Source: a virus (taxonomy: Duplodnaviria > Heunggongvirae > Uroviricota > Caudoviricetes). Taken from it: a DNA stretch of 36,849 bases. A program made the position numbers and the translations under genes. The DNA is taken from positions 1 through 36,849 of the IMG/VR virus record IMGVR_UViG_2529292835_000026; one strand, given 5' to 3'. Position 1 is the first letter of the stretch. Each line of letters opens with the position of its first letter. Under the pieces are notes generated by a model. The model worked only from the letters and a program-made list of their open reading frames with translations, was not told where the DNA came from and did no database searches. This document shows, piece after piece, positions 22,874 to 36,322 of this stretch.

Positions 22874-23545
22874 TTAAAAACCAAGCTCATCTCTGATTCT
22901 TGGGAATTTTTTCATTACTCGAATATCAGTTAATAAATGCCAACGCCAAAAAACAGAAAATGGATATGATACATTACACATTGGCTTTAGCTTATTCTTG
23001 GCCTCTTGGATTTCTTGTTCTGTGCTTCGATCACTGACAAGTTTCATTCTCCAACCAGTAAAGTAAAACAATTCATCTTGTAACTTCTCTGAGAGATTTG
23101 CTCTTGTAATGCCCCTCAACCCCGTACTCGAAGAGTTAAAACACTTATCTAATAATTTGACTGTATTTAAAACCTTTCTACTTGGTCTTTTTCTTCTTGG
23201 GTATACTTGAACACCACTCGTTATAGCGTTCCCTGCGAGATGAACAATCTCACTGAAAACATCAACATCACTCTTTGTGCAATCAAGTAAGTTTTCAAAA
23301 GAATCACTTTTAATACTATTGCATCGACTGCAAGCTAAAAATAGATTGTTCCAATCATATTTGAGCTCATCAAGATCACGATGTGGAATAAAATGTTCTA
23401 TCTCTGGATCCATAAGATTACCTTGCTCACAGAGATAACATTTTCCATGAAATATTTCGTCTAAAGCATTTACAACTGTTTTATGGTTATATACTTTTCT
23501 CGACAAGCATTGAGGTGCAGGAATATTTCTAGTAACATTAAACAT
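22874..23545 (-). CDS. HNH endonuclease, Septu PtuB-like
   Basis: HGKCYLCE ... EIEHFIPH ... NNLFLACSRCNSIKS = HNH motif; overlaps the upstream ATPase gene by 8 nt; AT-rich. Confidence 0.75.
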   Translation of the reverse strand: MFNVTRNIPAPQCLSRKVYNHKTVVNALDEIFHGKCYLCEQGNLMDPEIEHFIPHRDLDELKYDWNNLFLACSRCNSIKSDSFENLLDCTKSDVDVFSEIVHLAGNAITSGVQVYPRRKRPSRKVLNTVKLLDKCFNSSSTGLRGITRANLSEKLQDELFYFTGWRMKLVSDRSTEQEIQEAKNKLKPMCNVSYPFSVFWRWHLLTDIRVMKKFPRIRDELGF

Positions 23546-24791
23546 CGTCTTCCCTTTCGCTATAATCTAAATATTTACTCTTAGCGATCATAAAAGCTGC
23601 TTTTGAACTTTTATCAAGAAAATCAATACTCTTCTGTAACGTTTTCATTATAGAATGAAATCTATCGTCGAAGACATTATTTTCTACTAAAGTCATTAAT
23701 TCTTTAACTAATGCATTTAGCTTATCCGAAGATACATCCTCACCCAACAATCCCTTTATAATTGCTGTGTAAGAATACAATGATAAATCACCCATCTGAT
23801 CCAATGTTGAGAGATTAAATATAATCGCATCAGATACTGATTGGATTACGAAAGGTGAATGCGTAGAAACAATAAATTGTATTTGCGGAAAAGATGATGA
23901 AAAAAAACTAAATACTTTCTTTTGCAATGTTACATGAAGATGAGCATCAATTTCATCAATAAGTACTATCCCTGTCATATCATGTTTTCTGATTTTATCA
24001 AGCTCTGCTTTTATCAATAAATCAGTATAAATAGAAAGAATTGATGAAAAACCAGATGACAACTTATCAAGTCCAAATGGTTCCTTATTATTTTGTAAAA
24101 GATAGATTTTCAACTTGTCGAGATCAAAATCCATTCTAATACTTTCATCTTCAAAAAGTTCTTTTAAGTCATCATTAATACTCTCAATAATATCAAAGGC
24201 TCTTTTATAGTCATCATCCTTGCCCACTCCCTTACTGACTAAAGCATAATTCCACAATGTAACTATGTATCTTTCAAAATACATACCAGCATCAATCTTA
24301 GAATTATTTCTCTGTGCGTTCCCATACTCAGTTAACAACAAATCGAGGCTGCTAATCTTACCATCATTTTTTATTTTCGCTTCTCGAATAGCAGGAAATA
24401 ATCTTATAATTGATTTTTTCTTTTTTGCAGCAACCCTGAAATCAACCACATCATTAAAAGTAATATCAAAGCTCTCAAATTCTTTTAATTTTTCTTTCAG
24501 TCTCTCAATTTCTTCGTTTAAATAGCTATAATTACCATCCCCTCTATTTGAATACTTTAAGTTTTCTTGACTGGAATTCAATTCCTTTTGTAGCTGCTCC
24601 TTAGTATAAGGATCATGTGAATTAATCGATTTTTCTATAAACTCATAAATATTCTCGATCAACCTAGTTTTACCAGAGCCATTATCTCCTGATATTATTA
24701 GATTCTTACCATCAAGATTTAATGTGTAAGGCTCATCGTTCCTTTTAAAGAAGATAGTTTCGATGAAATGTCGCATTATTCCTCCCGTCAT
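23538..24791 (-). CDS. ABC/SMC-type ATPase, Septu PtuA-like
   Basis: Walker A GDNGSGKT, ABC signature LSSGFSS, Walker B VLIDEIDAHLH, H-loop STHSP. Alternative start at 24776 (MRHF...) has a GGGAGGA Shine-Dalgarno. Confidence 0.75.
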   Translation of the reverse strand: MTGGIMRHFIETIFFKRNDEPYTLNLDGKNLIISGDNGSGKTRLIENIYEFIEKSINSHDPYTKEQLQKELNSSQENLKYSNRGDGNYSYLNEEIERLKEKLKEFESFDITFNDVVDFRVAAKKKKSIIRLFPAIREAKIKNDGKISSLDLLLTEYGNAQRNNSKIDAGMYFERYIVTLWNYALVSKGVGKDDDYKRAFDIIESINDDLKELFEDESIRMDFDLDKLKIYLLQNNKEPFGLDKLSSGFSSILSIYTDLLIKAELDKIRKHDMTGIVLIDEIDAHLHVTLQKKVFSFFSSSFPQIQFIVSTHSPFVIQSVSDAIIFNLSTLDQMGDLSLYSYTAIIKGLLGEDVSSDKLNALVKELMTLVENNVFDDRFHSIMKTLQKSIDFLDKSSKAAFMIAKSKYLDYSEREDDV

Positions 24792-25228: not shown

Positions 25229-25882
25229 ATGAATAAATACAAACTTTTCGCACAGCTATCAAGATATTCATTTGAAGCGCAGATTGATGATTTCGAAAAA
25301 TATATCCTAGGAGCAGGCGGCCAAAACAGAGTTGACTTATCGGAATTAAAAAAAGCATATGAAGATGAAAAAAAGAATGCTCCTGACGATTATATTAATT
25401 ACTTAGAAGACTATTATTCAGAGCAATATGATTTCTTAGTTAACATACAACCAAATATTTTTAATAAATCTGCTTTGGTATCTTTATACTCATGCTTAGA
25501 GCACAACCTAAACGACTATTGCAATATATGTCAAAGGATTGTAAACACCAATATATCAGTAACCGATTTTAATGGTGATGGCATCCACAAAGCAAAAAGA
25601 TATTTAACAAAATTAATGGATATAAACTTTGGCCTGTCACAAGAGTGGCGATTCATGACAGAGTTTAACAAAGTAAGGAATTGCATAGTTCATGCTAATG
25701 GAGACATTAAAAAAATGAGCACAGCTGTAGCCTTAAAAGATATCATTGATAAAACACCTACTCTTTCATTAAACAATGAAAATAATATAATAATCTCCTT
25801 AAATTATTTAAAAGATACTATCACAAAAATTAGAAAACTCTTTCAATGGTTATATACACATCTGGATCAATCATCGAAATGA
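25229..25882 (+). CDS. Uncharacterised 217-aa protein with HEPN-like R-x4-H motif (candidate defence/abortive-infection RNase)
   Basis: AAGGAA upstream of ATG; very AT-rich; motif EFNKVRNCIVHANGD fits the HEPN R-x4-6-H signature; no other recognisable domain. Confidence 0.5.
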   Translation: MNKYKLFAQLSRYSFEAQIDDFEKYILGAGGQNRVDLSELKKAYEDEKKNAPDDYINYLEDYYSEQYDFLVNIQPNIFNKSALVSLYSCLEHNLNDYCNICQRIVNTNISVTDFNGDGIHKAKRYLTKLMDINFGLSQEWRFMTEFNKVRNCIVHANGDIKKMSTAVALKDIIDKTPTLSLNNENNIIISLNYLKDTITKIRKLFQWLYTHLDQSSK

Positions 25883-26134: not shown

Positions 26135-27001
26135 TTAGATGGCTTTGCTTCGATATTCAATTTCTAAAATCGCCTTTGTCATTGCCGCAATAGTTATAGC
26201 TTCTACCATAGTCAATTCAGGCTTGTTCAAGCTTCCGTGTCCAGCAGTAGGTAATTTGTTACGTAAATCATAAATATCTTTAACAGCATCAATAAGATTC
26301 TTAGGTAATTTTGACATTTTTTCGAACTGTTTAAAAAAACCACCCAATGACTCATTTGCCACATTCGGGTTTTGAGTGATTTCCTTAGCCATAGTTTCTA
26401 AAACATTAGAGGCTGCGTGCAGTGCACCTGCCGGATCATTATTATCCAAGCAATTATTCATTCTATCTATTTGCTGAACGATATTTGGGTGCAATCTCTT
26501 TAAGTAATCACTAGCCAATTCTTCATTGAAATTTTTGACACTTTCAAAAACATCGCAATCTAAATAAAATTTAGGATTGACTGACATCCATGTATATTTC
26601 CAATCATTTTCTAAATTATCTTTTTCCGCAATCCGCCTGCCAGTGTCCTGATCTATCTCATCAACATATTTACACATATAATCGGCGTAGTAGTGTAAAT
26701 ATCTAAATGATATTTCTGGGCAAAAATTACTAACTGATGCAAGGCCGCCATATTCTTTTGTAGTAACTGTAGGGACTTCTTCATCACATAAAGATGAGAA
26801 AGTGGTTCTTTCCCAAAATTCGCCCAACTCTTTTTCTTTCCTAGTTGCCATACCAGCTATCATATTGATGCTTGAGAGCAAAACTACACTCTGATAGTAT
26901 CGAGGACATCTGTATGAACTAGCATATGGGCATATTGATGATGCTTTACGATTAATACGCTCTTTTTCCCACCAATTTTTATCAGGAATAATTCTTTGCA
27001 T
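26135..27001 (-). CDS. Uncharacterised 288-aa protein, candidate defence cargo
   Basis: Long AT-rich ORF convergent with the 217-aa gene; Cys-rich N-terminus (CPYASSYRCPRYY); no family recognised by eye; no clear Shine-Dalgarno at the first ATG. Confidence 0.5.
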   Translation of the reverse strand: MQRIIPDKNWWEKERINRKASSICPYASSYRCPRYYQSVVLLSSINMIAGMATRKEKELGEFWERTTFSSLCDEEVPTVTTKEYGGLASVSNFCPEISFRYLHYYADYMCKYVDEIDQDTGRRIAEKDNLENDWKYTWMSVNPKFYLDCDVFESVKNFNEELASDYLKRLHPNIVQQIDRMNNCLDNNDPAGALHAASNVLETMAKEITQNPNVANESLGGFFKQFEKMSKLPKNLIDAVKDIYDLRNKLPTAGHGSLNKPELTMVEAITIAAMTKAILEIEYRSKAI

Positions 27002-28075: not shown

Positions 28076-30490
28076 TTAATACAGGTTCCGCCACTTATCA
28101 TCTTCCTGTAAACGCTGATTCCGATAGAAGATACGCAGGCCAGCCCCTGACGGAATACTGCCTCCGCGAAGGAGTAAATCGACCTCTTTCTCGCTGCCAT
28201 CAAATCCTCTGGACTTCAGTTCATAGACGAGCTGCTGTCGCTGATGGTCTGTAATTCGCTGTTTGTAGTCTTTGCGCCGTTTCGGTTTCACCTGGCGTAA
28301 CCTTGCAGCCAGTTCCCGACGCTCTTTTTTGCTCATACTGTGCAGATAATCGTGCAACTCCTTGTCATCCTGGCGGGTAATGTCAGTTCTGGTGTCCCCA
28401 TCAGCTGATTTATCTTTCTCCTGTTGGTTCAAATTTTCAGCAAGGGGACAGTTATTGCCACGAGTCCAAGGGGCGCAAGCGCCCTTGTCGGCTGCCGCCT
28501 CCTGAACGTCAACGGCCTTACGAACCATTTTCCACTTCACTGCATGAGTGCAGATCTTGCCCTCTGCAATGGGTGACCAGATGCCATAAATACGAATACC
28601 GTGATCGCCATAGGCGGTCGGCTCTTCGTTGATTTCATAAGCAGTTCTGATGAGGTGATATTTGCGGGGAACCAGTACGCCGCCCTGCTTCATGATGTAG
28701 GTGGCAAAACAACCAGCATCAGCAGCAGCCAGGATTGCATCAAGGCGCGGGTTATCCAGTACCGGCGCACCTGCTTTTTTGTCCCCCTGCTGCCTTGCCG
28801 CCTGACCAGCCAGCAATCGCAGTTCACGGTAAGCCTGACGCCCCGGAATGCCAAAGAAGCGGAATTGCTGAACACGATGCAGAGACGCCCAAGCATTAAC
28901 GTATTCAGCGTTATCACGCAGGGATTTACCCGTTTCCTTGCTGATCTCGCCAGCCAGACCACGCCCGTCAATGTTCTTACTGATGTATTTCGCGATGTAG
29001 CTTGTTGGCGTACCTTTGCGCGGGTTTATCAGCTCGGACTTAAAGCGTGGTCCCGTGTTATTACCCAGCTCCTCGCGGTCTTCACGAATGGCAAACTTAC
29101 GCAACAAAGCAGTAATGGCGCGGCGATCTTTTTTGCGCATAAAACACAACAGGTGCCAGTGAACTGTACCGTCGTGATGCGGCTCAGCCACCCGCACGCC
29201 ATACCAGCGCAACCCGGCTTTGTGCATCGCCTTACGAAATGCAGCAAACATACCGACCAGATAATCACTGCTTTGTCTTACCGTCGCATTTGTCCAGGTT
29301 GGGTTGGGCCTGCCGTTATTTAGCGTGGAATGGAAACGTGACGGACAGGTGATGGTGTAGAAAACGGCGCAGTCACCGCGCATTTCCGCGATAAGCTCCA
29401 GACCTTTAACACAGGCCATCATCTCATTGCGGCGATGCGCAGGGTTGCTGCTGCTGGCGTTTACCACATCCTCCATGTCCAGCGTGTCGCCGTCTTCGTT
29501 CACCAGTTCATGAGAACGGAAAAACTCCAGCGACTTACGGCGCTGCTCACGTTTATGCATCACGGCTTCATAGCTGACATAAGGAGATGCTTTTTTGCTA
29601 ACCAGGCAGACAGCGCGCAACTGCTCTTCCCGCCATTCGCAACGCATCTTCCATAATTTCCGATACCACCAGTCGGCGCACAACATACGCGCCAGCGAAC
29701 CCGGAATGAGTTCATAGGGCACGGGTTTACGGCGGTTTCTTTTCCGACGGAGTTGCTCAAACGCAGGCGGGATAACATCCAGACGCAGGGTTTCCGCTGC
29801 CACCTTTTCCCACGTCTTGCGGATTTCTTCTGGCTTAACGTCATCGGTGGCATACAAATCACCACAAGCGGCATCAAGGCACATGCTCATATGCGCAGCA
29901 ACAAGGGTAGACAGACGCTTCACCTGATCCTGACTCATTTCAGGCAGGATCAGCAGGCCGTCCAGCCCTTCATGGCTTGCCATAAAGCGAAAAGAAGTGG
30001 ATAGCTGACAGTCGCGTACATGCTCCAGTCGTTCCAGACATGGCTTAATCGTCTCACGCAAATAGCGGGAATAAGCCTTTGGCCTGCCCAGGCTGCTGAA
30101 GTATTCAATACGTTGCATCAGCGGCTTGCTGATATGGGAAGGCTGGGCATTGACGTCCGCCAGAATGACCATATCTGGATTAAAACGCTGCTGCTCATGC
30201 GCCAGCTTTGCCCGGCTAATGAGTTTATCCTGCTCCATTTCGCGTTGGACAGGATCACGGGATTCATTAAAGAAATAACGCTCCCAGACCTGATCACTCA
30301 GTGCCTCGCGGCGCAGTTGTTCCAGCTCGTTATCGACAGCGTACAGAGTGATCAGGTTTGAAAGCGCAGAAACCGGCGCAACTTCCGCCGGGTCCAGATA
30401 AGGGTTAATGGCCTTTTTCGGGCTGTTCCATGAGAATGCTGCGGCGACCTCGTTAAAGCCGCTGCAGTTGTTCATATCAGCATGGCTCAT
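28076..30490 (-). CDS. A: Replication initiation endonuclease gpA-like (rolling circle)
   Basis: ...[19 protein letters not shown]... and ...[12 protein letters not shown]... match conserved P2 gpA motifs; 804 aa. Confidence 0.9.
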
Positions 30491-31345
30491 GCACGCACTC
30501 CGTACACGGCAGAACTATCCACTCCACGCGAAGGATCAAATCCCACCCAGCAGCGCGGCCCGGAAACAGCGATGATTTCTGTTGCAGATTTACTCTCACC
30601 AGCTGCTACGCCGATGCTGCGTTTTGCCTTGATGTAGTGGTGAGTAAAATTGCGATACAGCGAACGGATCAGGGATGTGTCACTGTTAGAAACAATGACC
30701 GGATGTCCTTCTGATGACCGATGTTCAAGAACGGATGCCAGGTGATACTGGTCATCTTCAGTGAAACCATCAGTGTGATAGCCGGAAAACGTACCGTCAT
30801 ACGGCGGATCGCAATACACCACATCCCCCACCTGCAGCATCGCCAGCGTTTCATCAAAGCTCGCGCAGATAAACGTTGCCCGCTTGGCTTTCTCTGCAAA
30901 TGCGCGAATTTCTTTTTCAGGGAAATACGGATTTTTATAATTACCGTAGGGAATATTGAAATGCCCGCTCTTGTTATAGCGACATAAACCACGGTAACCG
31001 TGACGATTGAGATACAGGAAATATACCGCTTTCATGAAATCAGTAATTTCAGTTGAGTAATTAAACTCCTGCCTTATGTTGTAATAAGCCACCTCCCTGT
31101 TTGCGATCTCAAATAAAACTCTGGCGCGAGATATAAACGATTCACAATCAGCGGCAACCTTTTTATAGAGGTTGATTAAATCAGGATTAATATCCGCAAC
31201 CAGATAACTGGGATAATCCGTCTCCATCATCACAGCACAGGAACCCGCGAAAGGTTCAACCAGTCGCGGGCCAGCAGGAAGATGTTTTTTTCAGTTCTGA
31301 CATTATGGCAGTTTTATTTCCCGCCCATTTCAGGATGGTGCTCAT
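30487..31345 (-). pseudogene. dam: Dam-family DNA adenine methyltransferase, frameshifted at an A7 tract
   Basis: N-terminal frame MSTILKWAGNKTAIMSELKK stops 8 codons after the A-run at 31285-31291; the +1 frame continues HLPAGPRLVEPFAGSCAV... into the downstream ORF with ...DPPY...; together collinear with Dam. GGAGGTG Shine-Dalgarno precedes ATG 31345. Confidence 0.7.
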
Positions 31346-31569
31346 ACAGCACCTCCGTTGTAATGTTTGCCTTTCAGCTCTGCGATTTCCTGACAGGTAA
31401 TGCAAAGCTGCACACCCGGAATGGCACGGCGGCGGGCTGGCGGAATTGGCGCTTCACACTCAATGCAAAGCACGCGGGACACGCCCGGCGTTTTGGCACG
31501 GGCAGCATGGATATGACGCTGGCGTTCTTCTTCAACGCGCTGCTGTACGAGATCCATTGCATCAGCCAT
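31342..31569 (-). CDS. TraR/DksA-family C4 zinc-finger protein
   Basis: CIECEAPIP...CITCQEIAELKG spacing typical of the TraR/DksA C-terminal zinc finger; stop overlaps the dam start. Confidence 0.75.
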   Translation of the reverse strand: MADAMDLVQQRVEEERQRHIHAARAKTPGVSRVLCIECEAPIPPARRRAIPGVQLCITCQEIAELKGKHYNGGAV

Positions 31570-32757: not shown

Positions 32758-32931
32758 TTGGACTTTCTCCGTTTCCTCGTGATCAATTCAGACAGCAATT
32801 CATCTTGTGAACGGCACGGATGCCAGCGTTTACCATCCTCACCCATGATCCAGCCGTGACCGTAGTGCATTGCCGGGCTTTGTTTTACCAGCAGCGATGC
32901 AAATGATGGTTCTTTCGTCAGCATAAGCACC

Positions 32932-36288: not shown

Positions 36289-36322
36289 AGCTCCACCACT
36301 TTTTAGTTGTTTGAAGTTCAAT

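Follow-up and report, generated by a model that had tools for sequence, protein, structure and literature searches.

The dam gene of the P2/186-like Escherichia coli prophage analysed here is split by one extra A, in a tract of seven where intact relatives have six. Comparison of the sequences makes it very probable that this is a genuine inactivating +1 frameshift, restricted to one lineage and inherited vertically, and that dam is an ordinary pseudogene in this prophage and not a programmed switch. In the course of events that we propose, replication slippage within the Lys-Lys codons 19-20 would have turned the A6 of dam into A7 in a single sublineage of an E. coli prophage that is common and resides at ssrA, and vertical inheritance would have followed. 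The preliminary description of this DNA had offered three readings of the split gene, namely a recent inactivating mutation, a sequencing or assembly error and slipped-strand phase variation; the evidence favoured the first and did not support the other two.

Organization of the split dam gene and its prophage

The window, by which we mean the whole stretch of 36,849 nucleotides that was analysed, holds a P2/186-like E. coli prophage lying beside ssrA (tmRNA at 698-1060). Its early operon is encoded on the minus strand in the order cII, fil, DUF5347, DUF2732, TraR/DksA zinc-finger gene, dam and gpA. The TraR/DksA-type zinc-finger gene (31342..31569, minus strand) lies upstream of dam, and its stop codon overlaps the dam start (ATGA, 31342-31345). 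Downstream, the gene of the 804-aa gpA-type replication endonuclease (28076..30490, minus strand) has its ATG overlapping the dam stop (ATGA, 30487-30490). The prophage variable region, which adjoins the portal gene, carries a Septu anti-phage defence pair at 22874-24791 on the minus strand, composed of PtuA (23538-24791, 7e-122) and PtuB (22874-23545, 2e-82). Two further, unassigned genes come after the Septu pair (25229-25882 and 26135-27001), the second with a faint Abi_C match.

Translation of the minus strand from the dam ATG at 31345 gives a frame of 29 codons (31259..31345), which reads MSTILKWAGNKTAIMSELKKTSSCWPATG (starting with MSTILKWAGNK) and is closed by a TGA at 31256-31258. Within this frame lies the A7 homopolymer (31285-31291, minus strand; T7 on the plus strand), where the extra A causes the frameshift. 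In intact relatives the tract codes for Lys-Lys as AAA AAA, corresponding to codons 19-20 of dam. The rest of the gene (30487..31284, minus strand) is in the +1 frame, which opens right at the A tract, after a stop codon, with KKHLPAGPRLVEPFAGSCAV and extends through DPPY (motif IV) to the stop at 30487-30489. The segment of this frame with motif I is HLPAGPRLVEPFAGS. Such a layout, with a 29-codon frame carrying LKWAGNK and with PFAGS and DPPY in the +1 frame, had been described beforehand and proved accurate in every detail. The claim that one fewer A would restore a single frame was equally borne out: removal of one A gave a single 285-aa dam frame, and E. coli 120899, the nearest relative, has A6 and is otherwise identical to the window over 161 bases at the tract.

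The longest dam ORF with a start codon past the frameshift (30487..31233, minus strand) encodes 248 aa from a GTG; counted from the next ATG it encodes 247 aa, which is the form of the truncated dam ORF called in public assemblies. The 248-aa ORF matched PF02086 at positions 37-253 only, with profile positions 1-36 absent, and this Pfam profile comparison revealed that the N-terminal LKWAGNK segment and motif I are lost from it. Because A7 splits dam, leaving no single ORF in which motif I (FxGxG) and motif IV (DPPY) stand behind one start, and because the remnant covers just profile positions 37-253, the window copy was classified as a pseudogene of the Dam family, defined here by TIGR00571 and PF02086 (D12 class N6-adenine methyltransferases).

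The restored (A6) protein aligned with PF02086 over positions 1-253 of 253 (256.8 bits for a cut-off of 22, 3e-76) and with TIGR00571 dam over positions 1-266 of 267 (322 bits for a cut-off of 114.85, 3e-96). Its residues 4-263 aligned with the E. coli Dam structures (PDB 2G1P/2ORE/4GOL) at 5.6e-73. The restored protein and E. coli Dam have in common LKWAGxK, EPFxGxG, the LYLNRxGYxGLCRYN…P loop and DPPY. Of the residues by which E. coli Dam contacts DNA in its structure, K9, Y119, L122, R124, P134 and Y138 have identical counterparts in the restored protein, and N120 and R137 do not. From this close match to E. coli Dam, the restored protein would be predicted to have GATC specificity and to catalyse methyl transfer. 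The restored protein reached 286.2 bits against the 441 cut-off of the chromosomal-Dam equivalog NF008152, and this score below the cut-off indicated a phage paralogue of Dam and not the chromosomal dam. The exact 285-aa sequence (P0001) was found on 129 public contigs. At 90% identity it clusters in a group of 4,038 sequences, among them one with the name "retron EC67 DNA adenine methylase." A literature search on P2-like prophage Dam gave nothing relevant.

The extra A in relatives and sibling assemblies

We have read the tract lengths from assembled sequences, so that a mixture of lengths within a culture is possible. The prophage of E. coli 120899, in which dam is annotated as intact, is 99.92% identical to the window over 36.6 kb; what separates the two is the extra A, a gpA repeat whose copy number differs by 18 bp, and eleven substitutions. 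The hexanucleotide repeat GAGTCC of gpA (28462-28467, minus strand) has one copy in the window and four copies in E. coli 120899; the repeat codes for (Thr-Arg)n, which results in replication endonucleases of 804 and 810 aa, respectively. Contigs encoding the 804-aa gpA were spread over 56 index blocks of the public collection.

The window has eleven private T>G changes (positions 1669, 3214, 12376, 13068, 16306, 19517, 19544, 20059, 26633, 31435 and 34820), nine of them preceded by GG and two by CG, with four being non-synonymous. Proteins with these changes were present on a single public contig, AQEA01000051.1, and the sibling assembly that contains locus L008 (AQDL01, in this accession series) likewise shows a private change of the T>G type, at 32841. 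Judging from their sequence context, the eleven changes look like the Illumina systematic error GGT>GGG (PMC3295828). A mutT mutator is a less likely source, since all the changes follow GG or CG, the sibling has such a change of its own, and the variant proteins come from a single assembly.

Given this noisy T>G background, an artefact had to be weighed for the extra A too, in which case the true tract would be A6 and dam would be intact. The error-like signature of the window speaks for this reading. However, the exact A7 28-mer was recovered in five loci (L003, L004, L005, L006 and L008, from GCA_049980605.1, GCA_049982325.1, SRR11281062, SRR11281128 and GCA_000354995.2), all of which share with the window both A7 and the gpA deletion and none of which has its T>G changes. 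The other assemblies bearing A7 thus number at least five and come from at least two projects; they include Logan assemblies of SRA runs and WGS records of the JAAP series, together with one of the AQ series dating from around 2013. Moreover, the truncated 247-aa Dam is present on at least 24 public contigs, and A6 strains from the same collections do assemble as A6. The occurrence of A7 in siblings free of the T>G noise supported that it is a heritable allele of the lineage. A sequencing or assembly error is accordingly most improbable, and annotations ought to treat the frameshift as genuine instead of "correcting" it.

Another locus, L007, encodes the 804-aa gpA as the A7 prophage does and is identical to it over 8.4 kb, yet it has A6. 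The presence of A6 on an otherwise identical prophage is indicative of a recent A6-to-A7 change within that prophage lineage. Together with the sharing of A7 by at least five other assemblies, this agreed with the recent inactivating mutation that had been among the readings first offered.

From window position 36302 on, the integrase-bearing island that borders the A7 prophage varies from one assembly to another. The neighbour in L004 is a P4-like satellite with Ogr/Psu genes, and that of the window and L003 is another integrase island. The two neighbouring islands could have resulted either from phage transfer, from tandem island turnover at ssrA, or from a second A7 origin.

Tract length in the population, phase variation and recoding

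We have searched for the tract with queries of 86, 55 and 53 bases, the 55-mers representing the two main dam haplotypes. The window's 86-mer with A7 had no counterpart among the 1,118 matching records of E. coli complete genomes; the matches listed spanned 85 bases each, which corresponds to A6. A6 was present in ~99.6% of the ~1,138 complete E. coli genomes carrying this dam gene, and A7, on another haplotype than that of the window, in four of them; one more record perhaps has A7 as well. The A7 records, retrieved in the 55-mer search, were ETEC4089, ETEC1702, A37 and M2. They have the same tract and the same +1 A as the window, but with CAC and not CAT after the tract, and constitute an allele and a lineage independent from the window's. 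The annotation read for ETEC4089 labels its dam as a "frameshifted" pseudogene (PGAP), so that an equivalent allele is already recognised in RefSeq. A5 was found on neither main haplotype among the complete E. coli genomes searched, and IMG/VR had 0 copies of A7 versus at least 120 of A6. The comparison of tract length in related prophages, which the preliminary description had called for, thus gave a nearly universal A6, with A7 in the sibling lineage and rarely elsewhere.

At the protein level, the 29-aa peptides of the A7 type were present on 86 contigs in all (~82 of them from four other dam alleles), and the 37-aa peptides of the A5 type comprised 14 variants in a 15-billion-protein collection. 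Some of these peptides may stem from homopolymer errors, as occur in draft or long-read assemblies. Across Enterobacterales genera, Lys-Lys gives way to IK, MK, KE, LQ, AK or still other pairs, and where KK is kept its codons are sometimes AAAAAG; as the dipeptide is variable among homologues, the homopolymer is not maintained. The best 80 IMG/VR loci were used for haplotypes and not for frequencies, considering that tblastn ranks full-length matches first and favours intact genes. Four of them have CTA AAA AAA and not CTG AAA AAA, that is, an in-frame A7 due to a synonymous Leu change, which should be more slippage-prone than A6. In L047 and L048 (Pantoea sp. FN060301 and Enterobacter nematophilus), the match lengths of the dam homologue were not multiples of three, suggestive of independent frameshifts elsewhere in the gene.

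These data bear on slipped-strand phase variation, in which the A tract would be a contingency locus working as a high-frequency on/off switch of the prophage Dam. Such a locus would be compatible with the recurrence of +1 (A7) and -1 (A5) alleles on several dam alleles, with the existence of otherwise identical prophages carrying A6 and A7, and with the four IMG/VR relatives whose in-frame A7 would be more slippery. The off-states, however, amounted to ~0.4% of the complete E. coli genomes and to 0 of at least 120 copies in IMG/VR, and no A8, A9 or A3 version of the window's dam allele was found in the 15-billion-protein collection. In addition, the Lys-Lys tract is not kept in other genera, A7 is a stable trait of its lineage, being constant in the five sibling assemblies, and E. 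coli is proficient in mismatch repair. The functional tract has 6 nt, and the variable tracts in a systematic study of Neisseria had 8 or more, with A/T tracts dominating the weak candidates (PMC5084427). In sum, the tract displayed neither the common length polymorphism nor the repeat length (it has 6-7 nt) nor the repeat upkeep in homologues that characterize contingency loci, and phase variation was considered very unlikely. Its behaviour fits that of a hot spot at which slippage is weak, in a gene that can be dispensed with, and not that of a programmed switch.

We have also considered that the A7 allele might still yield full-length Dam through recoding, either by transcriptional slippage, producing an mRNA minus one A, or by tRNA-Lys slipping into the +1 frame on the ribosome at AAA-AAA-A. 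The A run would allow perfect re-pairing of tRNA-Lys in the +1 frame, and the 12-codon shift window, which goes from the +1-frame stop (cTGA) to the 0-frame stop, begins at the tract. Frameshift "pseudo-pseudogenes" rescued by transcription are also known, but for longer runs: productive slippage in bacteria was associated with A/T runs of 9, sometimes 8, with homologues keeping both the run and the two-ORF layout (PMC1088944). Here, the run has 7 nt and the homologues of the window dam have A6 and one ORF. The E. coli RNA polymerase requires at least 7 T, and more than 7 in the case of A, for slippage (PMC6260861), whereas the sense strand here has 7 A. Sequence inspection past the tract also revealed no evident element that would stimulate +1 ribosomal slippage, be it a rare codon, a stop codon or a motif resembling Shine-Dalgarno. 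Full-length Dam from the A7 allele is thus hardly to be expected, and its programmed recoding is unlikely; low-level leakiness is possible. A -1 ribosomal frameshift on A-AAA-AAA was discarded, since it enters the third frame and meets a stop after 38 codons, and only +1 or -2 restores dam.

Predicted consequences of the dam frameshift and comparison with known systems

With dam as an inactivated pseudogene, translation from its true start would halt after 29 codons. Proteins of 246-248 aa that re-initiation might yield would be devoid of the N-terminal DNA-contact lysine and of AdoMet motif I, and should be inactive for this reason. In E. coli, GATC is already methylated by the host Dam, with which the prophage dam is probably redundant; the loss would therefore be probably near neutral in the lysogen, and both host and prophage DNA should keep their GATC methylation unchanged. 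The effect on the epigenetic state of the host that had been anticipated is unlikely, since the host already has E. coli Dam, to which the enzyme is closely homologous. The occurrence of A7 and A5 on several dam alleles stands against the reading as an ordinary pseudogene, as this recurrence would also be predicted by phase variation.

The overlap of the dam stop with the gpA start (ATGA, 30487-30490) suggests that gpA translation may be coupled to that of dam. The early stop in dam could then lower gpA translation or permit Rho-dependent polarity, barring re-initiation, for which a candidate cluster (GTG-ATG-ATG) lies 22 nt past the premature dam stop. If this coupling gives polarity, prophage replication could be slightly crippled. 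One may conceive that A6 is a low-rate reversible switch, with the prophage Dam being repeatedly turned off (A7/A5) and on again across E. coli lineages and its state tuning the post-induction replication capacity via the gpA coupling, a proposal to which we give very little credence. As a lineage-restricted pseudogene, the A7 allele carries little weight, being one more frameshift in a prophage accessory gene that doubles a host function. The short A tract is nonetheless a recurrent break point in a widespread phage dam family, and annotation pipelines will meet more such cases.

The P2/186-like (Fels-2-type) prophages and the retron-phage Ec67 have the same gene order as the window, from cII, fil, DUF5347, DUF2732 and TraR/DksA to dam and gpA, and the phage records RE2010, 4LV2017 and Cartapus share with it 95-97% DNA identity. 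The dam gene of these prophages and of Ec67 has A6 and is intact, in contrast with the A7 of the window. E. coli Dam also differs from the window copy in that the latter is split by the frameshift. The resemblance to the phasevarions of Haemophilus, Neisseria and Helicobacter resides in a methyltransferase ORF that is likewise broken at a simple repeat. Phasevarion methyltransferases carry long repeats, either arrays of tetra- or pentanucleotides or runs of one base of at least 8 nt, the length of which is often polymorphic between and within strains, whereas the tract of the window has 6-7 nt, is nearly monomorphic and is not conserved.
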